A stretch of DNA of 64,000 nt from Vicinamibacteria bacterium (lineage in GTDB: Bacteria; Acidobacteriota; Vicinamibacteria; Vicinamibacterales; JAENWD01): assembly GCA_963763095.1 (NCBI GenBank), contig CAVXNR010000003.1, forward strand, positions 815-64,814. Direction: 5' to 3'. A program made the position numbers and the translations under genes. This document shows, one piece after another, positions 19,430 through 42,631 of this stretch (its first letter is position 1; the number at the start of each line of letters is the position of its first letter). The notes beneath the pieces were generated by a model. It made no database searches, had not been told where the DNA came from, and worked only from the letters and a program-made list of their open reading frames with translations.

Positions 19430-20047
19430 TCAGCCAGCGATCCGGTAGACCCGACCGCGACCTTCGACCCTGTCGGAAACGATGGTCAGCCCGAGCCGCT
19501 TCTTCAGCGCGCCGGCGAAGGCGCCGCGCACCGTGTGTGGCTGCCAGCCGGTTGCCGCGACGATCTCGTCGATCGTGGCGCCCTCGGCGCGGCCGAGCAT
19601 GCCGACGAGCAGCGCCTGCTTGGTGCCCTCGCGGGTCTTGCCCCGCAGCGGCGCTGTGTGACTCGCTGCGGGGCCTTGGGCCGTCGCCGCGCCCAAGGGA
19701 CTCCGCGAGGCTGGTGAGTCTGTGTGGCCCGCTCCGGGCCGCTGCGGGGCCTCGGTCGCCTGCGACGCCCCCGGCTCGATGCCGAGCGCGTCGAGACCGG
19801 CCGGCGTGATCCGCAGCAGGATGCCGCGTCCGTCGTCGGCATTGCGCCAGAGCGTGTTGAGCGCGGGGTCGGCCTTGGCGGTGTTCTCCACGGTCTGCTC
19901 CTCGACCAGCCCGCGGGCGAGCAGCGCGGCGACCACCTTGGTCGCGGCACCGCCCCGCAGCGAGCCGGGCAAGGGCAGCAGGTTGCCGTCGGCGCGCTGC
20001 GCGGCGGCGGTCAGCAGGATCGACTGGGTGTCGGAAAGCTTCGGCAT
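19430..20047 (-). CDS. DUF3489 domain-containing protein
   Basis: MPKLSDTQSILLTAAAQRADGNLLPLP...TKQALLVGMLGRAEGATIDEIVAATGWQPHTVRGAFAGALKKRLGL. Start follows GGAGAA. Confidence 0.8.
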   Translation of the reverse strand: MPKLSDTQSILLTAAAQRADGNLLPLPGSLRGGAATKVVAALLARGLVEEQTVENTAKADPALNTLWRNADDGRGILLRITPAGLDALGIEPGASQATEAPQRPGAGHTDSPASRSPLGAATAQGPAASHTAPLRGKTREGTKQALLVGMLGRAEGATIDEIVAATGWQPHTVRGAFAGALKKRLGLTIVSDRVEGRGRVYRIAG

Positions 20048-20148
20048 CGGGGTTCTCCGGTCGGCAGGCCGGGACCATCCCGGCGCTGCTACCACCCCGA
20101 GCCGCGCGTCCCGCAGGAGCGCGGCGGTCCCGTCTGGAGGGGCAAGGA

Positions 20149-20358
20149 TCAGTCTTCGGTCGGCCCGACGATCTCGTCCCGCCAGACGCGGAACAGCCGA
20201 AGGTCCTCGGGCCGGGCGTGCCGTCGCCAGCCGAGGCGGCGGGCCTCGATCAGGCGGGCGGCGGCGTCGGCGAAGAGCGGATCGCCCGCATCGACCGCCG
20301 ATGCCCGGAACGCGCGGAGCTGGCGGTCGAGCGGGGTGAGAAAGTCGCGGGCGGGCAT
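20149..20358 (-). CDS. small hypothetical protein
   Basis: MPARDFLTPLDRQLRAFRASAVDAGDPLFADAAARLIEARRLGW... after GGAG. 69 aa. Confidence 0.45.
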   Translation of the reverse strand: MPARDFLTPLDRQLRAFRASAVDAGDPLFADAAARLIEARRLGWRRHARPEDLRLFRVWRDEIVGPTED

Positions 20359-20571
20359 GGCAGGCTCCATCGTGCGTCGGCTGATGGCCATACATGCGTG
20401 GATCGGCGGGCAAGCCAAGCGCATAAGCCGATCAGATCATTGCTTTCTTCAGTACGGCAGGGACGCGAAGCCGCCAGGCATGCCTGACCGGCAACCGCCG
20501 GCTCATCCAGCGCGCACCCTACGCCGATGCGCGCTAGCCAACTCGACAGATGTTTCTTTATTGTTCTCACC

Positions 20572-21088: not shown

Positions 21089-21599
21089 TCAAGGGTTGCC
21101 GCCCGGCACCGTCGAAATGGCGACGAGCCACGACGGCTCAGGCTCGGGCGTCTCCTGCGGACGGAGGGATGGCGGCAGCCACGGCCAGTTCGCGGTCCGC
21201 TGCCAGAGAAGCCGCTCGACCTCGGCCCACTTGCTCCGGTCGGCCATCAGCCCGCGTAGTGCAGCCACACAGGCCCGGCCCAGCGCCACGTAGACACCGG
21301 CCCCGCCGAGGCGCAGATGCCCCACACCGCCGGCCTGACCCGCCAGCCGTGGCCGACCATGTCCGGCCCCCGCCTTCGCATAGTTGCGTTCAACGGAAGG
21401 TGGTCCAGACGATGTAGGGGATCACCACGCACATCCCGGCCAGCATCCCGTAGTTGATGACGTCCAGCGGGCCTGAGGGCAGATCGGCGCCGCCTTCATC
21501 ATCGATCTCCACCGGCTCGGGTCCGTGGATTTCGTCCCTGACCCAATCGGGTATCGTCACCCATCCCGACCGCTCGTGCATATGCTTGCCCACCAACAT
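21089..21599 (-). pseudogene. small membrane-protein family member, copy 1 (frame-disrupted)
   Basis: The two ORF pieces 21390..21599 and 21089..21325 share ...WAEVERLLWQRTANWPWLPPSLRPQETPEPEPSW with 25960-26070 at the nucleotide level. Confidence 0.3.
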
Positions 21600-21859
21600 T
21601 CCCCGAGCGCAATCTGCGGGTGGTCCGCGTTGGCGGCAACGGTGGAAGGGTGAAACGGTAAAGGCGTGCCTGACTTGCAGGGCTTTCTCCGCGCGGCGGA
21701 CAGCTACCTCGCCGCCGACCGCGCCACTTACTTATCCCATAGGTACGGTAGGAGCGAGGACACCTTTAAGGGGCCGGCCCTCCCCTTCGTCTAGCAGAGC
21801 CGACCCGACTTCTCGCACCTCGCGATGGGCACCGTCCCCACGGTGCTGAAACTAGATGA

Positions 21860-22198
21860 TCAGGAAATCAACCACGGTAAGCGTGGGGGGCGGGAACTCA
21901 GGGTCGCGATGTGTTCGCGGGCGCCTGCGTCAGTCCCGTCGGGGTCCCAGTAGAGGAATCCGTCGTCGGTGTCATAGAGCAGCCATCAGAGGCCACTGCC
22001 CCCGGCAATCGGGTCGCTTCCCGTCGACACGGAGACTTGTGAGCCGACGCCTTGGGCCGACCCATTTACCGCGCTGACGACAACGGTATCACCCTGGAGC
22101 GTCGGCGCATCGTTTCTGCGGACATTCCCCGTGACTCGTACGGCGTCTTCGATGATCGATCGTAGGTCATCGACCGCCGACCCTGTCGCGATTGGCAT
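21860..22198 (-). pseudogene. short RTX-type calcium-binding-like protein with in-frame TGA
   Basis: MPIATGSAVDDLRSIIEDAV...DPIAGGSGL-TGA-WLLYDTDDGFLYWDPDGTDAGAREHIATL. The C-terminal block is typical of RTX/hemolysin-type protein ends. GGAGGGG precedes the ATG. Confidence 0.55.
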
Positions 22199-22251
22199 CG
22201 GTTGCCCCTCCAAAGCCCGGTTCGGTTGTCTGGCGGCTATTCAGCTCGCCG

Positions 22252-22356
22252 CTAGAAGGCTGAGGCCATTGACCGATCGGCGACGAGAGTCAGCAGAAAC
22301 AGCAACAAGCCGCTGAAGGCGGCCATCCTAGGTGCGGAACGGATCGATCCCTTCAT
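22252..22356 (-). CDS. 34-aa single-TM mini-protein (cassette A)
   Basis: MKGSIRSAPRMAAFSGLLLFLLTLVADRSMASAF after the conserved CATCCAGGAGATCGC. Paralog at 27428-27544. Confidence 0.5.
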   Translation of the reverse strand: MKGSIRSAPRMAAFSGLLLFLLTLVADRSMASAF

Positions 22357-22447
22357 TTGCGATCTCCTGGATGCCGAGCCTTGGGGGAGAGAATCGCTGC
22401 GGCTACTTGCAGCGCGAACAGGGTGCCGCCCCTGCGCGACGCCGGCA

Positions 22448-22463
22448 TCTATCATCTGATAGA
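22448..22463. promoter_or_regulatory. perfect 16-bp palindrome TCTATCA-TC-TGATAGA (operator-like, site A)
   Basis: Read directly. Lies 23 nt after the regulator A stop and 91 nt before the mini-protein start. Confidence 0.6.
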
Positions 22464-22486
22464 GACAGACCCAACTTCCGCGGAAG

Positions 22487-24224
22487 TCAGGCCGACGGCA
22501 GGCGGGCAGGCTCAAAAAACTCGAGGATCGTGGGGACTAGCGCGGCCTCTATCAGGTCGAGCACCTCTGGCCAGCGGACATGAGCAACGAACTCACCCTC
22601 GTCGTGATAGCCGAGGAAGCGCCACGCCGGGTAGAGCCCGCAGTAGTCCAGTGCGGTCTCAAACGGAGCGTTGGCGTCCTGCTCGCCATGGATCAGCGTC
22701 ACCGGGCAGGCGACGTCGCCGAGCCCCTCGGGCCAATCCTGGTGGAAAAGCGCGAGCTCGGCGGCCATCGCGCCCTCCGACCAGGAGTCGGCGAAGAATA
22801 GCTTGTCGGCTGCGGCGAGAAAGGCGACCGCGATCTCCGGGTCGGCGAAGGCCTGCGCGTCAGCGGGAATTCGCGCCAGGATGCCGCGCATGTACCGCTC
22901 GAGCCCGTAGCGCGCAACCGTGGCCCGCAGGCCACGAAGCATGAACGGCAGAACTTTCGGGCTGTAACGCGCACAGGCCCGGACAAAGCGGGCCGGCGGG
23001 AACAGCCGGCGATACTGCACGTCGTTCAGGATCGGAAAGCCCGCGCCGATGCCGAAGATCGCCCGCACCCGCGCCGGGTCGGCTTTGGCCAGCAGCAGCG
23101 CGATGCGGATGTCATCGCCGGGCGCGACCACCACGGCGGAGGCGATGCGGAGCTGCAGCATCAGCGCCCGCATGTCGGCGACGGCGACCTCGAAGGTGTT
23201 GCGGCCCTTTGGAAGCAGATCGCTTCCGCACCAGCCGGCGCGGAACGGTATCAGCACCTTGAGCCCGCGGCGGGCAAAGTCCTGCTTCGGCGACCCGCGG
23301 CAGTCGCCAGAAGCCGTAGGTCGACTGCATCCAGATCACCGGCCGACCGGCAGGGTCGCCGAAGCTCAAGACCTCGATCTGCCGGCCGTCGGGCATCCTG
23401 AGGAAGCGCTGGTGCTGCTCAACGGAGCGCACGGGCCGCTTCGGCTCGGCCTCGGCCGGCACCGACTGCATCAACAGGAGTCCGAGACGCGCCACCTCAG
23501 CCTGGCTGCGAGTGGCGGTCTTCTGCAGGATGGCGTGGAGCTGCGAGCGCACGGTGCCGGCTCTGCGGCCCGTCGCAGCGGCGATCCCCGCCACGGTTTC
23601 GCCGGCCACCAGCCGTCGCATGACTTCGACTTCGGCGGCAGTGAGCGCGAACATCCGAGCTAGGAACTCGGAGACCGCCTCGGGCCAGGCGAGCTCGCTG
23701 GTGACCGCAAGTACCCGCCGTCGGGCGCCCGGCATCGCCTTCAGGTGCACGAGCAGCAACCGGTCGAACCCCGCGGGGCGCAGCTGGACGATCTCGTCGC
23801 CGCCGGTGCCTTCGGCCGCTACGTGGGCGACCCTCGACGTCAGCTCGTCAAGACCGGGCGCCTCGAGCGGCATGCCGCGGATCGAGCCGCCGGGGCGCAG
23901 CCCGAACACCGCCGCCGCGGCGTCGTTGGCAGCCAGGACCTCGCCGTCGTCGTCGAGCACCATCGCCGCGCCGAGGATGGTCGAGAGCAGGTCATTGGCC
24001 CGCGCCAGCTCGGCGGCGCGAAGCTGTTCGAGGATCTGCATCACGCCGCCGATCTGGCGCGCGAACACCGAGCCCGCGAAACCGCCGAGCCGCACCGCTC
24101 CCTTCGGATCGACGCCCGCGATCTGGGCGTCCCAGATGCCGATCAGCTCGTCGAGCCGCTCAGGGCTGACTGAGGCGTCGAACAGGTGCTCGACGAGTTC
24201 CCAGGACCGAACCTCGCCTTCCAA
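22487..24224 (-). pseudogene. LuxR-type HTH / alpha-beta-hydrolase-fold fusion regulator A (one frameshift near 23270)
   Basis: TTG start after CAGGGG. N-domain, then HTH LTAAEVEVMRRLVAGETVAGIAAATGRRAGTVRSQLHAILQKT. The hydrolase-fold half continues in ORF 22487..23257. Paralog of 27877-29581. Confidence 0.8.
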
Positions 24225-24482
24225 GTCGCATCCCCTGCATCAAGGCTGGCGGGCGATCGAAGACCGAATTGACTGTTCAACTTATGGGCGTATCAGTGCT
24301 CGTCGAATAATCGCAGGAAAAGGCCCCGGTCACAATAGTCCCGCGCGCGGCGCGCAATAATCTGTCCCACGGCGGCGTTCGCCTCCGCGCGGCGTTGGGC
24401 TTCGTCGGTCACCGGCGTCGAGGAGATGCCGGTCCGCAGCCCGAAAAGGCCGAGGTGGATTCAAGCGTCACGTGGCCGTGTC

Positions 24483-25439
24483 TCAGGTCGCTTGGTCAGG
24501 GCTCAGCTCCCTTGGATGCAGATCAATGCGTCGCCGGGCTCCCGCGGCCCCCGCGTGACGCTCGGCGCGAAACAGCACCACCATCGCCACGAGCATCAGG
24601 AGGCAGCCAGCGGCCTCCGACGGGGCGAGCCGTTCGCGCAGCACCAAGGCGGCGAGCAAAGCCGCAACGCCAGGCTCGATCAGGGTTGCCGCGAGCCCCG
24701 AGGCCGCGGACCGGCTCCGATGCAGGCCCAGCACAAATGCGAGGTACGCCGCGCCTGTCGCCGCGAGACCGGTATAGCCGAGAATTGCCACGTCCCCCGC
24801 GGGCAGCCTGCCGAGCGTGGCGAGCTCGATTCCCGGGGAGACCAGCACCACCAGCCCGAGCGCGCCTGCGGTGACCCCGAGCCCGAGGCCGGTCGCCCTC
24901 AGCGGGTGCACGTCGCGCGCCATCACCCGCGCCGCCGCCGCCACCACCGCATAGGCGACCGAGGCGGTGGCGAGCAGGGTGACCCCACGCCAGTCCACGC
25001 CCCGCCCGCCGCCCTCGTGCGGGGCGCCACCCACCATCGCCAGCACGACCCCGAGGGTCGCGATGCCGATGGCCGCCGAAGCGCCTGTCTCGGGCCAGCG
25101 CCGCAGCCAGACGGCCTCGGCCACCACCACCAACACCACTGGCGCGCAGACCGTGACCGCCACGGTCACGGTGACGCCCACCTGCGCGAAGGCGGCGAAG
25201 AGGCAGACCTGGAACACCGATCCCGCGAGCCCAAAGGTCGCCAGTAGGCCGAACGGCAGCCGCCCTGCCCAGGGCAAGCGCATCGCCTCGGCCGCGACCA
25301 GCAGGCTCAGTGCCCCGAGCGCGGTGCGGGCCAGCCCGACGAGCGCCGGGTCCGCCGCACTTTCGGCCATCAGGCTGTTCGCGACGCCCGTCGTGCCCCA
25401 GAGCACAGCGGCAACGCTGACGAGGAGGATGCCGCTCAC
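24483..25439 (-). CDS. EamA/DMT-family transporter
   Basis: Intact 318 aa (GTG start), about 10 TM segments. The LWGTTGVA and repeated EamA-like halves are typical. Confidence 0.85.
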   Translation of the reverse strand: MSGILLVSVAAVLWGTTGVANSLMAESAADPALVGLARTALGALSLLVAAEAMRLPWAGRLPFGLLATFGLAGSVFQVCLFAAFAQVGVTVTVAVTVCAPVVLVVVAEAVWLRRWPETGASAAIGIATLGVVLAMVGGAPHEGGGRGVDWRGVTLLATASVAYAVVAAAARVMARDVHPLRATGLGLGVTAGALGLVVLVSPGIELATLGRLPAGDVAILGYTGLAATGAAYLAFVLGLHRSRSAASGLAATLIEPGVAALLAALVLRERLAPSEAAGCLLMLVAMVVLFRAERHAGAAGARRRIDLHPRELSPDQAT

Positions 25440-25449
25440 GGCCGCGCCG

Positions 25450-25683
25450 TCACCTGGATACCGTGTAGCCTGCCGGCGACAATCCTGCGCATTCCTGCTC
25501 TCCCGTCAGACGCGGCGATTGCCAGTGTGACTTTGGTCGCTCCAAGTGATCATTGCGCGAACGACGCGGTGCCGGCGCGCGATCCGGCTCGCCCAGGCAG
25601 CGGTGAGAGTGGCGCCGTAGAAGCGTCTCTCGGGCGAGGATGCTCGAGGGGCCCGGCTCGGCCAGAGACGGTATGACAATCAT
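25450..25683 (-). CDS. 77-aa upstream ORF of the EamA gene
   Basis: ATG 9 nt after GGAGG, ending 10 nt before the EamA GTG. No motif recognised; could instead be a non-coding leader. Confidence 0.25.
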   Translation of the reverse strand: MIVIPSLAEPGPSSILARETLLRRHSHRCLGEPDRAPAPRRSRNDHLERPKSHWQSPRLTGEQECAGLSPAGYTVSR

Positions 25684-25775
25684 CGACGGCTTGCCTCCAA
25701 GCTCCTCTGCGAATCGAAAGCCGGTGAGTAATTCGCGAGACCGATCGAGATTCGAGTAGTTGCGCGTTGCGCGCA

Positions 25776-25791
25776 TCTATCAGGTGATAGA
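25776..25791. promoter_or_regulatory. perfect 16-bp palindrome TCTATCA-GG-TGATAGA (site C)
   Basis: Read directly. Lies about 335 nt upstream of the EamA start on the minus strand. Confidence 0.55.
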
Positions 25792-25830
25792 AGCTGCGGT
25801 GTTTCGACCTGCGCCGTCAGGCCTAGCCAG

Positions 25831-25872
25831 GGGGGGTGTGCGCAGCGCGATACCCGCGCCCCCTCTTTTTCT
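25831..25872 (+). terminator. hairpin plus T-tract (plus-strand orientation)
   Basis: GGGGGTGTG...CGCGCCCCC stem (with G-U pairs) followed by TCTTTTTCT. Abuts the stop of a minus-strand small ORF. Confidence 0.4.
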
Positions 25873-26090
25873 CAGCTGTATCCGAAGCCCCTAGTGAAGC
25901 CCCAGACCGACAGCGCCACGAAGGCGAGCGCCGGGTTCAGGTAGAGCGCGGCCAGCCACCACGGCTCAGGTTCGGGCGTCTCCTGCGGCGGCCGTAGGGA
26001 CGGCGGCGCTCACGGCTAATTCGCGGTGCTGCCGCAGAAGTTGCTCGATCTCTGGCCCAGTCTTGGGGCGCCGTTAGGCGGCCTTCCATG
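25873..26090 (-). pseudogene. small membrane-protein family member, copy 2 (frame-disrupted)
   Basis: One frame gives ...EIEQLLRQHRELA, another gives PQETPEPEPWWLAALYLNPALAFVALSVWGFTRGFGYS-stop. Related to 21089-21330. A third degenerate copy lies at about 26300-26445. Confidence 0.3.
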
Positions 26091-26251
26091 ACTGAAGCGG
26101 GCGCGACCCTGCCGCTGCATCGGCATCTACAAGACAGCCAGCCTATGTCACGAGAGCGCGGGACACTTAGCTCCGTGGGTTGTGCCGGTGTCTCGCTAAA
26201 CGATAGGTCAGCAGTCCTGTCGTGTGGCCCAACCCACGACAGGAGTAACTT

Positions 26252-26292
26252 AGGGGCGCGTGGCACGCCTGCACCCGCGCCCCTCTTTTCTC
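26252..26292 (+). terminator. intrinsic-terminator-like hairpin plus T-tract (plus-strand orientation)
   Basis: Perfect 9-bp stem AGGGGCGCG/CGCGCCCCT, 15-nt loop, then CTTTTCTC. Preceded by a second perfect 10-bp hairpin at 26214-26243. Confidence 0.55.
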
Positions 26293-26451
26293 GACTTCTA
26301 CCCAGCCCTCTGATAAACCCCTGGAGCGAGAACGCCAGCGGGCGAGCGCACGCGCACCGTGTTCGGCTGCCAGTCGTGGCGGCAATTACCTCGACGATCG
26401 CCGCGCCCTCGTGGCCGAACGGCGCCCGCCTGACATGGCGCACCGCCGCTC

Positions 26452-27336
26452 TCAGTTGAAGATCAGGTCATCGACGGCAAGTGTGTCGATGCCGATCAGC
26501 CGCACCTGGAAGTCCGCGGTGGTATCATCGTCCTCGTTGATCGCCAGGATGCCGTTGTTGCAGCGGATCTCGCCCGGAGTGCCGGAAAACGGGGCATCGC
26601 CGATGTAGGTGTTTACGTCTCCGATGTTGCCGAGGACGATCTTGTCGCGGCCTTTGGTGAAGTCGACGATGACGTCGCGTAGCGCGCCCGGCGTCAACTC
26701 GCTCATCTCAGTGTACTCGAATCTGTCGGCGCCGGCGTTGCCGTGCATTACGTCGCGGCCAGCATCACCTCGAATGCGGTCGGCGCCACCGCCCCCGAAA
26801 ATGGTGTCCCGATCGTCGCCGCCGAAGAGGTCGTCGTTGCCCGAGCCGCCGAAGATGAAGTCATCGCCGGCCCCGCCGCCGATGCCGTCCCCGCCAGCGT
26901 TACCGAAGAGAAAGTCCCCACCGAAGATTCCGACGATCACATCGCGTCCGGTGCCGCCGATGAGCAGGTCTGCTTCGTCGCTGCCGCTCAGGATGTCGTC
27001 CCCATCCTCGCCGAACAACACGGCCCCGGTAATGGGACCGTAGCCCTCGCCGGGTAGGCCGCGCACTCGGTCGTTGCCGTCGTCCCCCCAGAAGAGCTCG
27101 CGGCTCACGCCGGGCTCAGGCGCGTCTTCCTGGCCCTGGTCGATGAAGTCAGCGATGAGATCGTCGAGCTCGTCGAAGAGGTCGTCGAGACGGTCGCCGG
27201 CCACATCGATCGCGTCGTCGAGCGCGTCGACCAGCGCTTCCCCGGCATCGCCGAAGTCGTCGAGAAGGTCGTCGATGGCGTCGCCGACGTCGTCGAACAG
27301 GTCACCGAGCGAGAAGGCGGCGGATGTGGCGGGCAT
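26452..27336 (-). CDS. RTX (hemolysin-type calcium-binding repeat) protein
   Basis: Intact 294 aa. Extremely acidic N-terminus, then nonapeptide repeats GGAGDDFIFGGSGNDDLFGGDDRDTIFGGGGADRIRGDAGRDVMHGNAGADRF. Confidence 0.9.
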   Translation of the reverse strand: MPATSAAFSLGDLFDDVGDAIDDLLDDFGDAGEALVDALDDAIDVAGDRLDDLFDELDDLIADFIDQGQEDAPEPGVSRELFWGDDGNDRVRGLPGEGYGPITGAVLFGEDGDDILSGSDEADLLIGGTGRDVIVGIFGGDFLFGNAGGDGIGGGAGDDFIFGGSGNDDLFGGDDRDTIFGGGGADRIRGDAGRDVMHGNAGADRFEYTEMSELTPGALRDVIVDFTKGRDKIVLGNIGDVNTYIGDAPFSGTPGEIRCNNGILAINEDDDTTADFQVRLIGIDTLAVDDLIFN

Positions 27337-27427
27337 GGGAACTCTCCGGCTTGGGGACGGCCCCGCAGGCGACCTAAGGTGGGACCTCTGTTAGGGCCGA
27401 GGTACGGCCCGCTTGCAGTGCCGGCTT

Positions 27428-27544
27428 TCAGCCCGGCGTCAGCAGGACGTCCGCCATCGACCGATCGGCGAGGACAGTAAGCAGGATCAGGAGCAAGCTG
27501 CAGTAAGCAGCGATCCTTTGTGCAGATAGGATAGGTCCCAGCAC
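27428..27544 (-). CDS. 38-aa single-TM mini-protein (cassette B)
   Basis: GTG start 7 nt after GGAG. (M)LGPILSAQRIAAYCSLLLILLTVLADRSMADVLLTPG shares the core R-x-AA-x3-LLL-x-LLT-x2-ADRSMA with 22252-22356. Confidence 0.5.
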   Translation of the reverse strand: MLGPILSAQRIAAYCSLLLILLTVLADRSMADVLLTPG

Positions 27545-27631
27545 GGCGATCTCCTGGATGTAAGAACTGGGAGAGAGTCGCTCCCGCTGCTCGCGGTGCG
27601 ACCAGCGTGTCGCATCGCTTGTTCTCTTGCA

Positions 27632-27647
27632 TCTACCATTTGATAGA
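27632..27647. promoter_or_regulatory. 16-bp palindrome TCTACCA-TT-TGATAGA (site B, 1 mismatch)
   Basis: Read directly. Lies between the divergent mini-protein/RTX unit and regulator B. Confidence 0.55.
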
Positions 27648-27876
27648 GAACAGCTCGCTTTCGCGCCAAGCAGAGGCCAAGCTGTCGGGTGGAAGTCGGG
27701 CGGGTCAAGGGCCCCTCGTGGGGCCGAGCACCCTGTCGCCCTTGACTACGCCTCAGCCTCGGTGTCCGGCACTGCACGGCTGTTGGCCATGATCGCAGCG
27801 CACGTAGTAGCTCGCCTATAAGGAAAAGTGTGTTAAGCTCCCGTTCGAGAGGGCATCCCTTCGTCAGGGGGCAGAA

Positions 27877-29581
27877 TTGGCACGCGATCTCGTGGAGCAG
27901 CTCTACGAGACATCTCTTGAACCCGAACGCCTCGACGAACTGATTGCGGCTTGGGACGAACGCATCGGCGCAAGCGATCCCGACAGCGCGGTCGAATTGC
28001 GTCTGTTGGCGGAGCGAGATGTCATCCCCCATCTCGCGCGAGCCCTCGCGATACTCGATCGGATAACCGTTGCCGAAGCGCAGCGTGTTCAGGCGGTTCT
28101 GGCGGGTGTCGAGAGCGCCGCGATGGTCATCGGCACTTTCGGTATTGTCATCGCAGCCAATCAGCCGGCACAGGTCGCGCACGGCCTCTTTCCTGGCGAC
28201 ACGATCTCTAATGCATCATCCAACCCAGTCACGCTCGAGATCCTAGACCGGATGGACACGCTCCTAACGAGAGGGTCCGGGGCGGAAGCCGTTGTGTGCC
28301 TGCGCAGCCCGGACACCGATCGTCTCGTCGTCCTGCACCTCCGCACCATCGAGGCCGAACGCGGCACACGGCAACTGCTTGCCATCACCAGTGAGTGCAT
28401 CTGGCCGGAGCGGCTGTCGGTGCTTCTCGCGGATGCATTTGATCTTACGGCGGCGGAAATCAGTGTCCTCCGGGCGGTCACAGCTGGCGACACGGTTGCG
28501 CAAATTGCTGCCCGGGCGGGGCGCAGCCAAGGAACGGTGCGCACCCAGGTGCACGCTCTGTTGGCGAAGACGGGCGCCCGCAGCCAAGTCGAACTGGTCC
28601 GGCTGACCAACCTCTTGCTTAGGTCGCTCCCGGGCACTGATGCGAGCACACCGGACAATGACCGTCGGCCGATTCTGCGGCGGCGCCCGCTTTTGCTTCC
28701 GGACGGGCGACGGTTGGATGTCTTTCTTTTTGGCGACCCCCGGGGACGCCCGGTGCTCTGGCTGCAATCTACGCTCGGATTGTTTGTGCCGACGCGCTCG
28801 GCTGACAGCGACCTGCGCCGTCGCCGCATTCGCGTTTTGGTGCCGATCCGTGCCGGATTCGGCGCGAGTGACCCGGCGCCCGAGGGCAGCGATGTCTATG
28901 CTCTGGCCGTCGCCGACACCCTCGCCACCTTGGCTGAGTTCGGCTTGGAATTCTGCTCTCGTCGTTGCTCCGGTCGACGACATCCGCCTTGCCCTCATGC
29001 TAGCGCATGACGCCCCGCACGCGGTGCGCGGCATTTTCGCTATTGGCGCGGGCTTTCCGATCCAGACGTTCGCCCAATACCAGCGCCTCCATGCTCTCGG
29101 ACGCTTCTTCCGCATTTGCGCGAGGCATACGCCCCAGGCGCTGCCTTTCGCGGCAAAGGCTTTCTATGCCGTCGTCCGGCGATTCGGCATCGAGAGCATG
29201 ATGCGCAAGACATACGCAGAAGTCCCTGCGGATGCGGGTGCCTTCGCTGAGGCGGAAGTAGCTGAGGCTCTCATGTCAGGTTTCACTTACATGATGAGCG
29301 GGGATCATGCAGAAGCAGCATTCTGCGCCGACCTCATCAGACTACATGAACACTGGCCGGCCAGCCTCGGTCACGTGCAGTGTCCGGTCTTGCTCGTGCA
29401 CGGCGAGGAGGACCGAAACGCTCCCCTGGACACGGTCCGCGAGTACTGCGCCCGCTACCCGGAGTGGCGGCTGATTACCTTTCCCGGCGAAGGCCAGCTA
29501 ATTGGATATGCGCGGCGAGCTGAGGTATTCGACCTGATCGAGGCGGCGCTCGGGGACGGTGCTGGGCAGTCAGATCCATAG
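27877..29581 (+). pseudogene. LuxR-type HTH / alpha-beta-hydrolase-fold fusion regulator B (one frameshift near 28960)
   Basis: TTG start after CAGGGGG. HTH LTAAEISVLRAVTAGDTVAQIAARAGRSQGTVRTQVHALLAKT. The hydrolase-fold half continues in ORF 28640..29581. Confidence 0.8.
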
Positions 29582-29603
29582 AACCGCCGAAACCAGCCGA
29601 ATC

Positions 29604-29619
29604 TACATCATCTGATAGA
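29604..29619. promoter_or_regulatory. degenerate palindrome TACATCA-TC-TGATAGA (site D, 2 mismatches)
   Basis: Read directly. Lies 22 nt after the regulator B stop, the same position as site A relative to regulator A. Confidence 0.45.
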
Positions 29620-29621
29620 TG

Positions 29622-30533
29622 AAGGCAGAACCATGACGTGAGAGCCTGCTCGCGGGGCGTTCATTCCTGTTCCGCTTTGCTGCTTCTCGTACGCAGGCCA
29701 GCGCCTGTGACACGGTTTCCCGGCTCTGAGTCCGACCCGTGCTTTGCCGCCCTGCGGTTCCCTTGGCCCCTCCCCTTCCCTCCACGGCCTCAGCGCCCGG
29801 TCGCCCGGGTTTGTTCGGCCGCTTCCCTGGTACTATGGGCGGGTCCGACTTCCCTGGATCGTGCATCAGCGGGTTACGGCCGTAGCCTTGCCGCTGCGGC
29901 CTGGCGCCACCGCGCCAGGCAATCGAGGGACCTCCCGGTTTCCGTGTGGATGGTGTCCCGGCGTGCATGGGGTCTCGGACCGCGCGGGGCCGGCGTGCAC
30001 CTCGCCATGACGGTGCCTACCGTGTTGCCTTCCGCTTTTCTCTACAGCGTCGGCGCCCCGGAGATTTAACATTACGCGGCTCAATACCCAGCCCGCTGTT
30101 TCCCCTGTCAACGCTTCGACGCCGCCCTCGCGAGCGACGCCGCATGACTCGGGGCCGTTGTGGGCGGCTACCCTTCAACGTACGACTCTTTCATTCGCAT
30201 CCATCCACCGGCCTCCCGGCGCGCAGAGACTGTTAGACCGCAGTCCCCGTTCCTCCGCCAACCTCCCGACACAACCCATTCTCCGTCGTTCGCGCGGCCG
30301 AAATTTCTCGTTGTTTTCGAGGGTTGTAGCTGCGGGGCTGACCACTTCGCCCGGCGATACGGCCGAAATCCGTTCTCTCCGGGCCGGTATTCTCCAGACC
30401 TGTTGACTTTGGGTGATTTGGTGTGGTGCTTCAGGGTACTGTTTTCATTAAGAATTTTTCGCAGCAACGATCGGATTCCGACGAATTCTTTGGGTGGCGA
30501 AGGAAGTCTGAAATCCAACTCACGCCGCCAAAG
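29622..30533 (-). mobile_element. 5' fragment of a group II intron (ribozyme domains plus first ~70-85 codons of the intron-encoded RT)
   Basis: The minus-strand ORF from 29866, MHDPGKSDPPIVPGKRPNKPGRPGAEAVEGRGGAKGTAGRQSTGRTQSRETVSQALACVREAAKRN, matches the typical N-terminus of bacterial intron RT/maturases. About 660 nt of structured, non-coding-looking upstream sequence starts near GTGAG (30533). No RT domain or domain V/VI is present. Confidence 0.7.
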
Positions 30534-30574: not shown

Positions 30575-31156
30575 TCATCCGAGCCGGAACGCTGGCTTCG
30601 CTAGAATCCGTACAGCAATGCTGATCGCGAAGATCGCGTCGGGCCGCAGGAGTTCCGCTGCCGACGTGCGCTCGTCCATGCTCCGACGATCGAGATGGCC
30701 TCCGTCATGGACATGCCGAAAGTGCGACAGCGGGTTCCGCAGGTCAATCATTCGACGAAGATCGGCGACATCGTCGTCCGAAATCACGTCGCGCTCACGG
30801 CAGCGGCGGAGGGTGTCGGCGAACTTGATGCGCTCGGGAACGTCATCGATCAACAGGCCGGCATGCAGATAGGCGGCCAGCAGGTGTTCGACGAGGCCCT
30901 GACACAAGAGGATGGTAGCCACGAAATTGCCGTGCACGAACGACGAGCGCGCCTCGACCCACGCGAGATAGGCCGCATGGCCACCGAAGATCATCGTGCC
31001 GGAGCGCCCCATCTTGCTGCCGAGATCGGTCAGCATTCGGAAACGGCCGACCTTCTCCGGCAGATCGTCATGCAGGTCCGCCAGCAGATGCCGGACAAAA
31101 TCCAGATCCGACAAGTCTGAAAGCAGATCAGGCTGATCGCCCCCGCCCGCGGTCAC
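30575..31156 (-). CDS. HEPN-like (Rx4H motif) protein linked to the type I R-M operon
   Basis: Intact 193 aa from a GTG that overlaps the hsdS stop (GTGA). Helical, and contains DLRNPLSHFRH (R-x4-H). Confidence 0.5.
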   Translation of the reverse strand: MTAGGGDQPDLLSDLSDLDFVRHLLADLHDDLPEKVGRFRMLTDLGSKMGRSGTMIFGGHAAYLAWVEARSSFVHGNFVATILLCQGLVEHLLAAYLHAGLLIDDVPERIKFADTLRRCRERDVISDDDVADLRRMIDLRNPLSHFRHVHDGGHLDRRSMDERTSAAELLRPDAIFAISIAVRILAKPAFRLG

Positions 31157-32313
31157 GCAGCCGTCGCCCGGCCGTTGAAGACCTCGTGCAGCATGGCGGG
31201 GATCAGCGCCTCTACCTCCTGCGCGGTGTGAGCGCGGATGCTTTGAACCTCGCTCGCTTTGGCTTGGAGGCGGTCGAACCAACGCTGAATTTCCAAAGGG
31301 GGCACAGGGACTTCGATGGTTGGAAGTTCTTTGAGGACAGCGTTTTGTTGCGGGCGATCGTTCCTGGCGAATGGCCAACGACACTCGTGAATCCTTCGAG
31401 GGTCCGGAAATAGGTCATCAGAAAGCCTGGTGTTGCGAGAGCAGGATCGACCTCGCAAGTCAGCATCCGGTGATCCCCGACGGTGCCTTCGTCATACGCT
31501 GCCGCGACCGCGATGGCCTTCTCCCAAGCCATGAGATTGCTGAAAACAAGGTCGCCTTCCCTGATCCAGAAAAGGTCCTGCCAGCTGAATTCGGACCCCC
31601 GCATCGAGCGTCCGTGGAAAATGCCGTCGTCAAGAAACTGCGGACCCGCAATTCCATGTATTCCCGATCGGGATCGATCTCGACAGGCCGGCGCATAAGG
31701 GGGCGACTTCGCCCATCGGGCGAAAGGGGGCGCCGTCGATGGCGCGTTGGAAGGCTTTCAGCAGCAGGGCCTGGGTTTCGCGCTCGGCGCCGTCGATGGC
31801 ACGACGGCGTTCCTCCACCAGGGCCGCGACAGTGTCCAGCCGGTGGACGATGCGGCGCTGTTCGTCGAGGGACGGAAGGGCGATCCTGAAGCCGAGAACC
31901 TGCTCAGGATGAACACGCTGCCTGCGGTCGCCCATGCCCTTGCTGCCAACAGCAACCTGTCGCCACACATCCGGGCGCTTGAACATCCACAACAGATAGC
32001 GGGAAGCAATCGGTCGTGATCGACGTCAAACGTGGGATACTCGATTGGAGACGAAGACACCGTCCATTTCCTCAGGAACAATGGCATACGCCCCCTCGAA
32101 CGCGAAAAGGCGGCTATAGATGAATTGGTTCTTCCGCACTCTGTAAAGGGTGGATGCGCTGGTCTTCGCGCCGTCAATCGGCGGCTTGCTGAAAACGCCG
32201 CGGGCAAAACCATAGATCCCAAGATTGGGATAGCTCTGCTGCGGATCGACGCGACAAAGCTCAGACACCAAGGCCATCAAATCTGAAAGCGGAACGGTCG
32301 ACGTGGCCATCAC
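31153..32313 (-). pseudogene. hsdS: type I restriction-modification specificity subunit HsdS, at least 3 frameshifts
   Basis: Two target-recognition-domain-like halves and conserved helices (LPSLDEQRRIVHRLD; VPVPPLEIQRWFDRL) are spread over four frames. Confidence 0.8.
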
Positions 32314-33877
32314 ACGCGCTCCGCCAGGGCGGCCTTGATCTCGTCCATGATGCCGAGGATCCGCTGTTCCTGCGCGATAATCGCGTCCACGATCTCAGAT
32401 GGCGCGCGGTGATCTTCGACCTCGCCAGAATGCGGGTTCTTGATGTCGAGGTTGCAGGCGGTGACGCGATCCTGCGCGTCGCGCTGGATCAGGCCTGCCG
32501 CCGGCACCTTCCAGGCGCGCTCGTTCTCCTCGCGATTGTTCCACCAGGCCAGGCAGCCCGCGAACTCCTCATAGGCCATCGGCGCGGTCTTCGAGTATTT
32601 CTTGCGGCCCTCCGGCAGCGGCAGTCTCGTAGTACCAGATGTCCTTCGTCGGCCCGCTGGTGTCGAAGAAGAGCAGGTTCGCCGGGATGTCGGTGTAGGG
32701 CGCGAACACCCCTTCGCGCAGGCGGACGACCGTGTGCAGGTTGAACTTCTCCAGCAGGTCGGCCTTGATCCGCGCCGAGATGCCGTCGCCGAACAGCGTG
32801 CCGTTCGGCACGACGACCGCGGCCCGCCCGCGCCCGGCGCGCTTCAGCCGCCGCATGATGAGCTGCAGGAACAGCAGCGCCGTCTCGGCCGTGCGCCGGT
32901 CCTCGGGGAAGTTGTTGAGGATGCCCGCCTCCTCCTCGCCGCCGAAGGGCGGGTTGGTCAGGATCACGTCGACGCGCTGATCCTCGCCGATCTCGGCCAG
33001 ACGGAAGCGCAGGGCGTTGCCGGGGTCGATGTGCGGGGCGTCCAGGCCGTGCAGCAGGAGGTTCATCTGGGCCAGCAGGTATGGCAGCGGCTTCGCCTCG
33101 CCGCCGTGGAAGCTGCTCCTCCTGCAGGATGCGGCGCTTCTCGACCGTGTCGGCCTGGCGCTCGAGGTGCAGGAAGGCCTCGACCAGAAAGCCGCCCGTG
33201 CCGCAGGCGGGGTCGAGGACGGTCTCGCCGAGTTGCGGGTTCGTCACCTCGACCATGAAGCGCACCACCGGCCGGGGCGTGTAGAACTCGCCCGAGTCGC
33301 CGGCGGCGTCGCGCATCTCGCGCAGCATCGACTCGTAGAGGCGGCCGAGGGTGTGGACCTCGTCCGGACGAGTCGAAGTGGATGCCGTCGATCTTGTTGA
33401 CGACGTCGCGCAGCAGGTAGCCGCTCTCCATCCGGTTGGTGAAGCCCTGGAAGACGGTGGCGATCACGTCGCGCCGCTCGCGCCGCCCGTTATCGCCGCG
33501 CAAGGCGCGGAGATAGGCGAACAGGCCCGGGCCGCGGGTGCCGTCGGGGCGTTCGGCCTGCTCGGCGGTGAGAAACGACAGCAGGTCCGGCCCGGTGATC
33601 CCGTCGGCGTCCGCCGCCCAGTCGCGCCAGCGATAGGGCGGCTCGATGATCGAGCGGTAGTCCTTGCCCGCCAGTCCGCGCGCTCTTCCTCGATCCGCTC
33701 CATGTCGTCGAGGAACTTCAGGAACATGATCCAGGTGAGCATCGGCAGGCGGTCGAGGTCGCCGTTCAGCCCCTTGTCCTTGCGCATGATCTTGCGCGCG
33801 GACTTGATGATGCTGTCGAGGCGCTGGGCAGTGGTCAGTTGCTTCGGCGCAGCCTTCTTGCGGGCGGTTCTGGCCAA
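32310..33877 (-). pseudogene. hsdM: type I R-M DNA methyltransferase HsdM, about 4 frameshifts
   Basis: N-terminal HsdM_N-like LTWIMFLKFLDD, GEFYTPRPVVRFMVE, DPACGTGGFL and the catalytic ILTNPPFGG lie in different frames. Confidence 0.9.
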
Positions 33878-33894
33878 TGTCGGTCTCCTTCAAT

Positions 33895-36262
33895 TCAGGC
33901 GGTGTAGAGCAGGCGCTGCAGCTCGGTGACGGCGCTGCGCAGCTCCTTGCCGCCGCCGAAGCGGGCGGCGATTTCGATCACGTTGCCCCATTCGTTGAAC
34001 GGGGGCACTTCCAGGATGTCGGGCAGCTTGAACTGGGCGCTGCCGTGTTCGGCATATTTCTCGAGCAGGGCGTCCAGGACTTCGCGGGCGTCGGGTCCGA
34101 AGCGGGCAAGAAACTCGTCCTGGTCCTTTAGCAGGCGGTCCGCGCGCTCGCGGCGGGTGCGCAGCGGCGCGTTGTAGGCGAGATGGCAAAGGAGGTCGAA
34201 CGGGTCGGCCTCCGGCTTTCCGACAGCATCAGCCAGGAAGTCGAGGTCGATGCCCTTCTCCTCCAGCCGCTCGACGATCTCGGCGCGGCGCTCGGGGTCG
34301 AGCCAGTCGGTGCGCAGGTCCGAGGCATTCGGGTAGAGCGTGCGGACCTTGTCGCCGGTGTAGTCGGTGATTGACGGCAGGCGAGCTGCCGTCCATCGGC
34401 ATCGAGCTCGTAGACGAGGTGCCGGACGATCTCGACCTCGCCGCCGTCGACATAGAACTTGCGTGGCCGGTCTCGGGCTCGTCGTCGAGATCGACAGGCC
34501 CGTCCGGAACATCCGGGAAATCGTCGGGCTCCGGCGCCGTCTCCTCGATCTCGCGTTCCTCGACGACCTCACCCTGCCTCGTTGATCACGGCTTCGTCCT
34601 CGCGAACGGGATCGCCGTCGAAGGCAGGGTCGGCGAACATGCGCGTGGCCGTGCCGGTGTAGTCGAGGATGTTGAAGCAGAGCTTGCCGTAGTCGGGCCT
34701 GAGGCGCGTGCCGCGTCCGATGATCTGCTTGAACTCGGGCATCGAGCCGACGACGCGGGCAAGCACGACGTTCTTGCAGGTCGGCGCATCGACGCCGGTG
34801 GTGAGAAGCTGCGAGGTGGTGAGGACGGCCGGCGTCTGGGTCTCGACATCCTGGAACTTGGCCAGGTGCGCGCTGCCGACATCGCCCTCGTCGGACGTCA
34901 CGCGGCAGACGTAGTCCGGGTGATCCTTCACGAGATCGGTGTTCAATGCGGAGAGCGCCTGGCGCATCTCGAGCGCGTGCTCCTGGTCGACGCAGAAGAC
35001 GATGGTCTTGGCGAAGCGGTCGGTCTCCGTCAGGAAGCCGGCGAGGTGGCTCGCGATGGCCTGCGTCCGCGCGCGAAGCGCCACGACCCGCTCGAAGTCC
35101 CTCGTCGAGTACTCGTCGTCGGGGATCTCGCGCCCGTAGCGGTCAAGCTCGCCCCGCGTCGGCCGCCAGCCGGCGGCGTCGTAGTCCGTGATGACGCGGT
35201 GAACGCGGTATGGCGCCAGGAAGCCATCGTCGATGCCCTGCGCAGGCTGTATTCGTAAAGCGGATCGCCGAAGTAGTGGTAGGTGTCGCGGTTGTCCTCG
35301 CGCAGCGGCGTCGCCGTCATGCCGATCTGCGTGGCCGGCTCGAACTATTCGAGGATCTCGCGCCAAGTGCTGTCGTCGCGCGCGCTGCCCCGGTGGCACT
35401 CGTCCACGATGATGAGGTCGAAGAAGTCCCGGGCGTATTCGCGATAGAGGCCGGGGCGGTTCTCGTCTCGGCGATGGCCTGGTAGATGGCGAAATACATG
35501 TCGCGGCTCTTGACCGCGACGCCGCCCGCGATCTTGTGGCGCGCATCGCCGAACGGGCTGAAGTCCTTGGCCATCGGATCGTCGACGAGGATGTTGCGGT
35601 CGGCGAGAAACAGGATCTTCGGGTTGCGGTTGACGCCCTTTGCGTTCCAGCGGGCCGACCAGAGTTTCCAGCAGATCTGGAAGGCGACGGCGGTCTTGCC
35701 CGCCCCCGTGCAGAGGGTGAGCAGCGTCCGCTTCCTGCCCTGCAGCGCCGCCTGAACGGCGCGGTTGACGGCGATCTCCTGATAGTAGCGAAGGGGCTTC
35801 GCCCGGTCCGGAAACGTGGGCGTCAGCAGCCGATCGGCTACCTGGTCATCGAGAATGCTCTCCGCGCGACGCAGGCGGGACCATAGTTCGTCGGGCGCTG
35901 GGAAATCCCCGATCGTCCGCTCGATTCCGGTCGTATAGTCGAACTCGACGATCTCGATTCCGTTGGTGGAATACGCGAACTGCAGGCCGAGGATTTCGGC
36001 ATATTCCTTGGCCTGCTGAAGACCCTCCGCTGCATGCCTGTAGCGGGACTTGGCCTCCACAACCGCGATCGGGAAGTCCGGATTGTACCGGAGCAGGTAG
36101 TCCGACGCGCTTCTGCTTTCCCCGGCGGGCCTTGCCGCCGACGAATACAACTCGGCCGTCGGTGAAGGTTCTTTGCTCGTTGATGGCATGAGGACGATCA
36201 TCCCAACCTGCCGCTTGCAGCTTCGGGACGACGAACTTCCTGCAGGTATCGGCTTCGTTCAT
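33895..36262 (-). pseudogene. hsdR: type I R-M restriction endonuclease/helicase HsdR, at least 5 frameshifts
   Basis: MNEADTCRKFVVPKLQAAGW N-terminus, [12 protein letters not shown] (motif I), [11 protein letters not shown] (DEAH-like), MTATPLRED and TSQLLTTGVDAPT lie in different frames. Confidence 0.9.
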
Positions 36263-38074: not shown

Positions 38075-38195
38075 TGAGCCTGCATCCCCGTGCCGTTATC
38101 CTCGCTCCGCTCGAAGTAGAATGGGTCCCCCCGCGACCGGACGATGCTGCACGCGCAGTGCGGCCCCGCGACGTTCGTGAAAGGAGGTTCGTGAG

Positions 38196-39071
38196 GTGAT
38201 CCCAGCCGCCTTCGCGTATTTCCGTGCCCATTCAGCCGATGAGGCCGCCGCGTTGCTCGCGCAGCACGGAGCCGAGGCCCGCGTGCTCGCGGGCGGGCAG
38301 AGCCTCGTGCCTGCGATGCGGTTCCGCCTGGCACGCCCAGGGGTCCTCGTCGACATCAACCCGGCGAAGGATCTCGACTACATCCACCTCGATGGCGCGC
38401 TCGTCATCGGGGCGATCACGCGCGACGCCGCGATTGAACGCGCCGCGTGGATCCGCGATCGCCAATGGAGCCTGCTGCACGACGTCTCGCGCGTCGTGGC
38501 CGACCCTGTCGTTCGCCAGACCGCCACCGTCGTCGGGAGCCTCTGCCACAACGACCCGGCCGGCGACTGGACAACTGTCGCGCTCGCCGCTCGCGCCGAC
38601 GTCGACGTGCGCGGCAAGGGCGGCATCCGCACCGTCGCGATGGACGATTTCCTCGTGGACAGCTTCACGACCGCTGTCGGTGAAGGCGAGCTCGCCGTCG
38701 CGGTGCGGTTCCCGGTGCCAGACGATCGCACCGCCGGGTCGTACCAGAAGATCGAGCGCAAGGTGGGCGACTTCGCTACAGCCGCGGCCGCGGTGCAGGT
38801 CTCGCTCAACGTGGACGGCACCGTGCGCCAGGCCGGCATCGCCCTCTCGGCCGCCGGACCGCACGCGGTGCGCGTTGAGGAGGCGGAGCAGCTGCTGGCC
38901 GGTCGTCAGCCGACCCCTGACGTCATCCGCGCGGCAGCCGATGCCGCGTCGCGCCGCAGCGAACCGCAAGCGGATCTCCGCGGCGGCGTCGATTACAAGA
39001 AACACCTGGCCGGCGTCCTCGTGGCGCGCGGGCTGCGCCAGGCCCTGGCGCGTCTGGGGGGGCAGGCATGA
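38196..39071 (+). CDS. coxM: CO dehydrogenase / xanthine dehydrogenase family FAD-binding medium subunit
   Basis: GTG start 8 nt after [25 protein letters not shown]-binding motif. ATGA overlap with coxS. Confidence 0.9.
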
Positions 39072-39553
39072 ACGTGAAGATTTCGGTGAATGGCGTCGCG
39101 TACGAGCGCGACGTCGAGGCGCGCACGCTGCTCGCCTACTTCCTCCGCGAGCACTGCGGCCTGACCGGCACCCACGTCGGCTGCGACACCTCGAGCTGCG
39201 GCTGCTGCGTCGTCGTCCTCGACGGCGAGCGCGCGGTGAAGGCGTGCACGATGTTCGCGGTGCAGGCCGACGGTCACGAGGTGATGACGGTCGAAGGGCT
39301 GGCGGTCGCCGGCGCACTGCACCCGATCCAGCAGGCCTTCTGGGACAAGCACGGGCTGCAGTGCGGTTTCTGCACGCCGGGCATGATGCTCGCGTCGTAC
39401 GTGCTCCTGAAGCAGAACCCCGAGCCGAGCGAAGCGGACATCCGCGAGGGGCTCGCGGGCAATCTCTGCCGGTGCACGGGGTACCAGAACATCGTCAAGG
39501 CCGTGCAGCAGGCGGCGGACACGCTGCGCCAGCCCGCCGCGGCGGGCCAGTGA
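39068..39553 (+). CDS. coxS: (2Fe-2S)-binding small subunit
   Basis: [15 protein letters not shown] and CGFCTPGM...CRCTGYQNI cluster-binding motifs. Confidence 0.95.
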
Positions 39554-39566
39554 TCGGGGGGACACG

Positions 39567-41918: not shown

Positions 41919-42052
41919 GGGCTAGGGTTAAGGCTAAGGGCTAAAGGCTAAGGGACGAAGCGATGATGCAGCTCCGGCAATTAGGCGGGCCAAAGCTGGC
42001 CCCTCCCCGGCTTCAGCCTTCAGCCTTCAGCCCTTAGCCCTTTTAGCCCTTT
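41899..42052. repeat. heptamer arrays forming an imperfect long hairpin: (AAGGCTA/AGGGCTA)n ... (CTTCAGC)3(CCTTAGC)n
   Basis: Read directly. The left array contains the coxL stop codon (TAA 41916-41918). Centre hairpin GGGCCaaagctGGCCC. Confidence 0.85.
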
Positions 42053-42061
42053 GAGATTTGC

Positions 42062-42620: not shown

Positions 42621-42631
42621 CCTGAGCTGTC

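Follow-up and report, generated by a model that had tools for sequence, protein, structure and literature searches.

We analysed a 64-kb stretch of bacterial DNA (contig CAVXNR010000003.1; hereafter the window) in which four copies of a 16-bp palindrome lie around two genes, A and B, for LuxR-type regulators that join a PAS-like domain, a GerE/LuxR helix-turn-helix (HTH) and an alpha/beta-hydrolase-like domain. A search for the dyad TCTATCANNTGATAGA with up to two mismatches returned exactly four matches in the window (Table 1). The chance expectation was 0.02 matches, estimated from 100 dinucleotide-preserving shuffles, and none of the 100 shuffles reached four. The motif search thus confirmed the four copies, positions and mismatch numbers listed in the initial annotation. 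The dyad is conspicuous because it is AT-rich, with four G/C among its 14 specified positions, in a window with a G+C content of 67.6%. A weight matrix trained exclusively on sites from other organisms scored the four window sites at 29 to 36 bits, all in the correct orientation. The same scan found no fifth site in the 64 kb: the next best match reached 12.3 bits, with random-sequence maxima at approximately 20 bits. The earlier by-eye impression that the motif occurs nowhere else in the window was therefore correct.

Table 1. Palindromes, predicted promoter elements and genes in the window (nucleotide positions), and domains of the modelled regulator P0003 (residues)
Feature	Position	Strand	Description
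Site 1	22448..22463	-	TCTATCATCTGATAGA; 0 mismatches, perfect 7-2-7; 29.2 bits
Site 2	25776..25791	-	TCTATCAGGTGATAGA; 0 mismatches, perfect; 35.9 bits
Site 3	27632..27647	-	TCTACCATTTGATAGA; 1 mismatch (GGTAGA half-site); 31.2 bits
Site 4	29604..29619	+	TACATCATCTGATAGA; 2 mismatches, both in the distal half; 31.8 bits
-10 hexamer CACCCT, site 1	22420..22425	-	predicted; inferred transcription start near 22413
-10 hexamer GAATCT, site 2	25748..25753	-	predicted; inferred transcription start near 25741
-10 hexamer CACGCT, site 3	27604..27609	-	predicted; inferred transcription start near 27597
-10 hexamer GAGCCT, site 4	29642..29647	+	predicted; inferred transcription start near 29654
Regulator gene A	22487..24224	-	PAS-like, GerE/LuxR HTH, alpha/beta-hydrolase-like; Pfam GerE and PAS matches
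Regulator gene B	27877..29581	+	same three-domain order; approximately 42% identical to gene A, 86% to homologue P0052
EamA/DMT transporter gene	24483..25439	-	Pfam EamA; between site 2 and gene A, same strand
pep1	22252..22356	-	34 codons; first open reading frame past site 1; paralogue of pep3
pep3	27428..27544	-	38 codons, hydrophobic peptide, strong AGGAG ribosome-binding site; first open reading frame past site 3
RTX-type calcium-binding protein gene	26452..27336	-	Pfam HemolysinCabind and Peptidase_M10_C; downstream of site 3 and pep3
P0003 PAS-like alpha/beta domain	~84-179 (residues)		AlphaFold2
P0003 four-helix HTH	~184-255 (residues)		AlphaFold2
P0003 alpha/beta-hydrolase fold	~273-561 (residues)		AlphaFold2

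Sites 1 to 3 face along the minus strand and site 4 along the plus strand. Site 1 lies 23 nt past the stop codon of gene A and faces pep1, and site 2 faces the EamA transporter gene with gene A behind it. Site 3 faces pep3 and the RTX-type gene, divergent from gene B and 230 bp upstream of it, and site 4 lies 22 nt past the stop codon of gene B. At sites 1 and 4, the side that had been called gene-proximal consequently belongs to the gene downstream of the regulator, the sites following the regulator and not preceding it. Read toward the downstream gene, all four sites end in TGATAGA-TG or TGGTAGA-TG. The previously described asymmetric extension is therefore real. Sites 1 and 3 are not independent of each other, as approximately 260 nt around each (promoter, leader and small open reading frame, ORF) form a single paralogous duplication with 81% column identity, within which many of the differences between pep1 and pep3 are synonymous. 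The flanks of sites 2 and 4 are unrelated. A megablast search of plasmids with positions 21500-30200 gave no match.

The palindrome accompanies one regulator family

Homologues of the regulators were gathered from genomes, metagenomes and assemblies, yielding approximately 60 members with 33-95% identity. The family was found in Paracoccus, in one Amaricoccus metagenome-assembled genome (MAG) and in many metagenome contigs, one of them from forest soil. The dyad was present at the 3' end of the regulator gene in 17 of the 18 loci with a 3' flank, at positions ranging from overlap with the stop codon to 142 nt past it (usually 8-36 nt), and in those 17 loci it always faced the next gene. The linked loci are window genes A and B, L001, L002, L006, L008-L012, L014, L016-L019, L021 and L022, and include Paracoccus niistensis, P. 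chinensis and P. liaowanqingii. The regulator of L021 is 36% identical and is still accompanied by a dyad, CATCAATCATTTGATTGATG. The exception was L007, from the Amaricoccus MAG, with a 20-bit site approximately 735 nt from the gene end, facing a convergent neighbouring gene. In several lineages, the coding sequence of the regulator terminates within or immediately at the dyad (L010, 1507-1522; L014, 336-351; L018, 7738-7753), where TGA or TAG triplets of the dyad supply the stop codon; the regulator C-termini read ...TSIN-TGA in L010 and ...ISSDR-TGA in L014.

Additional sites were observed in P. acridae, upstream of an RTX-like gene preceding the regulator, and in L022, divergent from the regulator and before a DUF1127 gene. 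Because the neighbouring genes differ wholly between loci, the regulator is the sole constant partner of the dyad. In 41.7 kb of a P. liaowanqingii plasmid, the single site was that at the regulator 3' end, and across approximately 215 kb of related DNA sites occurred solely beside the regulator gene or a neighbouring gene. Two loci of a different family (28% identity), L003 and L023, lacked the dyad; a search past the L003 gene also revealed no alternative palindrome, L023 having been checked for the dyad only. This co-occurrence across genomes supports the suggestion of the initial annotation that the dyad is the operator of a dimeric HTH protein, with the LuxR-type fusion regulators as candidate binders.

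Some classes of genes recur behind the dyad. RTX-type genes (HemolysinCabind or RTX-like) follow it at window site 3 and in L004, L017 and L022, and EamA genes at window site 2 and in L022 and L006, with an ORF judged EamA-like by eye in L012 and L014. Methyltransferase genes follow it in L019 and L022, and in L022 RTX-type, EamA and methyltransferase genes form one string behind a single dyad. Small proteins are a further recurrent class.

The AlphaFold2 model of family member P0003, built from the family alignment, showed three domains (Table 1) with a mean predicted local distance difference test (pLDDT) score of 81, and its top Foldseek match was 9wlv (TM-score of 0.84 normalised by target length). 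A profile search against the PDB matched the HTH with RcsB, DesR, FixJ and VpsT, and the C-terminal domain with esterases and epoxide hydrolases. Pfam identified the GerE HTH in both gene A and gene B. In the regulators it found PAS-type and GerE domains alone, with no autoinducer (acyl-homoserine lactone)-binding domain and no Response_reg (receiver) domain. The position aligned to the nucleophile Ser of 9wlv is Asp, His, Tyr, Phe or Leu across the family, and that of the catalytic His is Gln or Glu. Because neither position is conserved, the hydrolase-fold domain is most likely non-catalytic and serves as a sensor or interaction module. Conversely, the putative recognition helix GTVR(S/T)Q(L/I)H, located by alignment with GerE HTHs, is nearly invariant among 28 proteins down to 33% identity, matching the near invariance of the half-site. 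NCBIfam contains no model for the family, which showed weak, sub-threshold likeness to BagY/FevT and NarL, and literature searches on the regulator family, the motif and the lux-box geometry yielded nothing relevant.

Promoter geometry and candidate mode of action

We aligned 17 non-redundant sites on the dyad, numbering the 16-mer as positions 0-15. All 24 sites share the 2-bp spacer, and changes in the half-sites are often symmetrical (TCCATCA/TGATGGA, TCTACC/GGTAGA and TCAATCA/TGATTGA). Past the proximal half-site, T16 and G17 occur without exception (20 of 20 sites). On the distal side, C occupies position -2 in 12 of 17 sites, so that the dyad symmetry extends to approximately 20 bp. The distal flank, which the earlier note had given as TCTC/TTCT, is asymmetric in the window as described; in other organisms, CA is frequent at this flank. 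Taken as a whole, the element is therefore a dyad of approximately 20 bp, C-N-TCTATCA-NN-TGATAGA-T-G, whose proximal half is better conserved.

The downstream signal nAnnnT stands at the fixed positions +38 to +43; of the 17 sites, 12 have the A at +39 and 15 the T at +43. None of 5000 circular-shift permutations reached the observed frequency of an A followed four positions later by a T at a fixed offset (14 roughly independent flanks), and four sites found later had T at +43 in all cases and A at +39 in three. An A in the second and a T in the sixth position of the hexamer characterise a minimal -10 element. If +38 to +43 is read as the -10 element, transcription would start at approximately +50, the invariant TG would occupy -34/-33, and the dyad would be centred at approximately -42.5. 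The TG would then match the conserved TG of the -35 element TTGACA at a spacing of 17 bp. Start codons, annotated or inferred, are all located 21-64 nt downstream of the inferred transcription start. A promoter scan detected no consensus sigma-70 promoter in the region, which fits the dependence of a weak core promoter on an activator.

An A-tract (GGAAA or CGAAA) precedes the dyad by 10-11 nt, at -14 to -12 (22475-22477 for a window example); 16 of 17 sites have an A at -13. It is kept whether the stretch is coding or not. RNA polymerase alpha C-terminal domains contact DNA upstream of class II activators, and the A-tract, at approximately -62 to -64 relative to the inferred start, may be such a contact or a DNA bend; we offer this as speculation. 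Half-site-like sequences, TTGATAGA, were also noted downstream of the main dyad in L019 (7780-7788) and L016 (approximately 7985), and L017 has a second palindrome, GCGATCAGTGATCGC, in the interval from the dyad to the predicted -10 element (7715-7729). These may be auxiliary sites.

From these comparisons of sequence, we consider it likely that a family of one-component LuxR/GerE-type regulators, not described before, uses the 16-bp dyad as its operator, placed within promoters that depend on the regulator. A regulator dimer would bind the two 7-bp half-sites across the 2-bp spacer. Each dyad would be embedded in a promoter in which the TG past the proximal half-site is a -35 remnant, followed by the 17-bp spacer and a minimal -10 element. 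The regulator would most likely activate the gene that the dyad faces, because the layout is that of a class II activator-dependent promoter such as the lux-box promoters, and the signal would probably be sensed by the PAS domain, the pseudo-hydrolase domain or both. In the window, the site 1 promoter would drive pep1 and the ORFs behind it, and the site 3 promoter pep3 and the RTX-type calcium-binding protein. The site 2 promoter would drive the EamA transporter and probably also regulator gene A; the EamA gene and gene A may form an operon, and gene A may be autoregulated via site 2. The target of the site 4 promoter would have been lost and replaced by a truncated group II intron.

The same regulator might instead repress, or change between repression and activation depending on a ligand, obstructing through the -35 region a promoter that is otherwise active by itself or receives read-through transcription from the regulator gene. 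We regard this as unlikely. The dyad does overlap the inferred -35 position and GerE-family proteins include repressors; the terminator scan found no terminator between the regulator gene and the dyad, and a read-through that could be blocked is conceivable. However, the core promoter is very weak, retaining the TG of the -35 and the A and T of the -10 element without a consensus, as is typical of activator dependence. The phasing of dyad and -10 element and the A-tract likewise correspond to the needs of class II activation, whereas repression would tolerate looser spacing.

Far less probable is that an unlinked factor, such as a TetR- or AmtR-type repressor, binds the dyad and that the link to the LuxR-hydrolase gene is indirect. 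The half-sites TCTATCA and TGATAGA are identical to those of tetO1 (ACTCTATCATTGATAGAGT), and they fit the AmtR box pattern, CTAT-N6-ATAG. As the initial annotation had pointed out, however, the spacer differs from the single base pair of tetO1, and this holds for every site. The outer flanks are AGA-TG here and AGA-GT in tetO. Neither the scan of 40 window ORFs nor the gene lists for the related loci revealed a TetR_N match or another TetR-family domain, and the divergent tetA/tetR arrangement is missing. The tetO likeness was accordingly rejected as coincidental on the grounds of spacer, flanks and gene content. A factor encoded elsewhere would also leave unaccounted for that the LuxR-hydrolase gene alone co-occurs with the site across unrelated neighbourhoods, and that the site appears nowhere else in the approximately 215 kb of related DNA.

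A slightly lower probability still attaches to a role in RNA, in which the palindrome would fold into a 3'-terminal hairpin on the regulator mRNA that serves to terminate, stabilise or process it. The location just past or overlapping the regulator stop codon in most loci would suit such a role, and a 6-bp stem with a 4-nt loop is possible (minimum free energies of 36-nt segments, -6.7 to -12.9 kcal/mol). The stems are nevertheless AU-rich, lack a U-tract, were not called by the terminator scan and folded better than shuffled sequences at only one of the four sites. Sites 2 and 3 and the sites of L004 and L022 lie upstream of genes and not at a 3' end. Moreover, it is the sequence itself that is conserved, beyond pairing: in 6 of 20 sites A at position 1 stands opposite G at position 14, breaking the pair, and the invariant flanking TG and the phased -10 element would have no function in a hairpin. 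The least probable reading, that the palindrome is a recombination or mobile-element site (a cassette boundary or inverted-repeat end) that moves the regulator gene, draws on the many unrelated contexts of regulator and dyad, the mobile-element genes in the region and a rearrangement breakpoint with a truncated group II intron approximately 40 nt from site 4, but no recombinase or transposase is consistently adjacent, each gene has one site and not a pair enclosing it, target-site duplications are lacking, the breakpoint falls past the promoter leader and not at the dyad, and the fixed distance to the -10-like element would remain unexplained.

Three further candidates were tried and rejected. 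A leaderless small ORF starting at the invariant ATG of TGATAGATG would give unrelated peptides of arbitrary lengths. The dyad as an element for an extracytoplasmic function (ECF) sigma factor or sigma-70, with the upstream GGAAA as -35 and the dyad as -10, does not fit the spacings. The third candidate was a 906-aa LAL-type LuxR regulator as the binding protein; in other loci the site occurs without such a gene. This LAL/MalT-type gene (14762-17482, minus strand; AAA_16, TPR_MalT and GerE) is intact and lies 5 kb from site 1.

Several points weigh against the operator reading set out above. The position at -42.5 stands or falls with the inferred identity of nAnnnT as a -10 element, and repression would be just as possible for a protein occupying the -35 region. 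The counts overstate independence, since phylogenetic relatedness among many of the comparative sites leaves roughly 11-14 independent flanks. The downstream genes are heterogeneous (a 68-aa protein, cupin, DUF6623, methyltransferase, RTX-type and EamA) and indicate no coherent physiological role. Finally, both regulator genes in the window are frameshifted. Comparison with intact homologues by tblastn located a single-base (+1) insertion near 23277-23281 in gene A, where GCAGGAC replaces the expected GCAGAC, and another near 28949-28950 in gene B, at GAATTC, each splitting its gene into two overlapping ORFs. The insertions may be either real pseudogene mutations or assembly errors. If the frameshifts are real, no intact local regulator serves the four sites; they may be orphans, or a paralogue encoded at another location in the genome may act on them.

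Neighbouring genes and decay of the region

The disrupted genes are unevenly distributed. Both frameshifted regulators fall within the stretch of approximately 18-36 kb, together with the truncated group II intron and split genes of a type I restriction-modification system, and elsewhere in the window long ORFs of 906, 835, 1096 and 1009 codons are intact. This uneven spread argues for real gene decay, within a mobile or island stretch, over uniform sequencing error, although it does not prove it. The restriction-modification system (31150-35550, minus strand) is degraded by several frameshifts, with parts of N6_Mtase in two frames and the EcoEI_R_C and Helicase_C domains of the restriction subunit in separate ORFs.

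Homology to the leaders of L012 and L014 extends for approximately 45 nt downstream of site 4 and then ends. In these two loci, the leader runs into the ORF with the EamA-like translated N-terminus mentioned above. Past site 4, the leader homology breaks off into the truncated group II intron, indicating that the original target of this site was lost. The intron fragment lies on the minus strand within 29603-30189, with domains D1-D4 at 29970-30189 (Rfam RF02005, 190 bits). The start of an intron-encoded ORF was recognised by eye and breaks off at approximately 29650-29660; the rest of this ORF and domains D5-D6 are missing, and no Pfam family matched the putative ORF.

Neither pep1 nor pep3 matched a Pfam family. 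Both have an AGGAG ribosome-binding site, and their hydrophobic cores read AAFSGLLLFLLTLVADRSMA and AAYCSLLLILLTVLADRSMA, respectively. Behind pep1 lies a 70-codon ORF (21986-22198, minus strand) without a Pfam match; past its in-frame TGA, the frame continues with a LLYDTDDGFLYWDPDGTDAG stretch resembling C-terminal parts of secreted calcium-binding proteins. This ORF may be what remains of a counterpart to the RTX-type gene that follows site 3. A hairpin resembling a terminator, GCGCGATACCCGCGC with CCCCTCTTTT after it, is located at 25845-25869 on the plus strand, opposite to the strand of site 2; it sits 55 nt from that site, on the side of the RTX-type gene and in the gap before it.

The wider window contains, at 2191-3156, 12650-13522, 19430-20413 and 38181-44619, a Toprim/DUF7146 primase-like gene, an IS4/IS5-family transposase and a DUF3489 protein, as well as a CO-dehydrogenase-type cluster with CoxM/S/L-like genes, CoxG, XdhC and an AAA ATPase. 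This context looks like that of a plasmid or genomic island.

Relation to known systems and meaning for the family

The proposed arrangement resembles known promoters in layout. At the lux-box and tra-box promoters of quorum-sensing activators of the LuxR/TraR type, a dyad of approximately 18-20 bp is centred at -42.5 and supports class II activation. The present system shares with them a GerE/LuxR-type HTH, a dyad of approximately 20 bp with an inferred centre at -42.5 over a degenerate -35 element, a weak core promoter and a regulated gene adjoining the regulator gene. It differs in that the regulator has no autoinducer-binding domain and instead combines PAS-like and pseudo-hydrolase domains, with the HTH in the middle of the protein, and in that the operator is unrelated in sequence and abuts or overlaps the stop codon of the regulator's own gene.

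The geometry of the dyad itself recalls the sites of NarL and NarP, which are 7-2-7 heptamer pairs, TACYYMT-NN-AKRRGTA. Both consist of inverted 7-bp half-sites with a 2-bp spacer, bound (here, by inference) by a dimer of GerE-type HTHs, and the HTH of P0052 gave a weak NCBIfam match to NarL. The heptamer TCTATCA is a different one, however, and the regulator lacks a receiver domain, making it a one-component protein and not a response regulator.

Similarity is also seen with the PAS-LuxR regulators of actinomycete polyene clusters (PimM type), whose operator is a 16-nt palindrome, and with BagY/FevT. In the present family, too, a LuxR HTH follows an N-terminal PAS-like domain and the operator is a 16-bp palindrome; the NCBIfam likeness to BagY/FevT covers residues 68-247 and is weak (28 bits, far under the cutoff of 700). 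In contrast to the PimM type, the present regulator adds an alpha/beta-hydrolase domain of approximately 300 aa past the HTH, its operator sequence differs, and its host is given as alphaproteobacterial and not actinomycete.

For the hydrolase domain, the nearest parallels lie in signalling. The alpha/beta-hydrolases RsbQ, which works with the PAS domain of RsbP, and D14/KAI2 function in signalling, and RsbQ and D14 keep a Ser-His-Asp triad. The present family similarly combines an alpha/beta-hydrolase fold with a PAS domain in a signalling protein, and weak profile matches to D14 structures were obtained (E of approximately 0.002). Unlike RsbQ and D14, it lacks the conserved nucleophile and His, and its hydrolase domain is fused directly to a DNA-binding domain.

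One further idea, which we put forward tentatively and consider rather doubtful, is that the regulator gene, together with the dyad promoter joined to its 3' end, constitutes a self-contained and portable sensor-output cassette, with the pseudo-hydrolase and PAS domains acting as a small-molecule receptor wired directly to the DNA-binding domain. If true, such a cassette would put whichever gene lands downstream under the control of a ligand, and it would be a bacterial one-component counterpart of hydrolase-receptor signalling of the RsbQ/RsbP or D14/KAI2 type.

The operator-regulator pair overturns no current concept. It is probably a new, well-defined pair of a familiar type, namely a LuxR-family one-component regulator with a 7-2-7 dyad acting as a class II activator. 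The domain architecture is uncommon, and the regulator gene as a rule carries the operator fused to its own 3' end. The pair would offer a compact orthogonal regulator-operator combination for GC-rich alphaproteobacteria. The analysis also flags an alpha/beta-hydrolase pseudoenzyme as a probable sensory domain. For a LuxR-type family so far annotated generically, these data, drawn from sequence, would provide a precise operator, a promoter architecture and a first candidate regulon, comprising RTX-type calcium-binding proteins, EamA transporters, methyltransferases and small membrane peptides.

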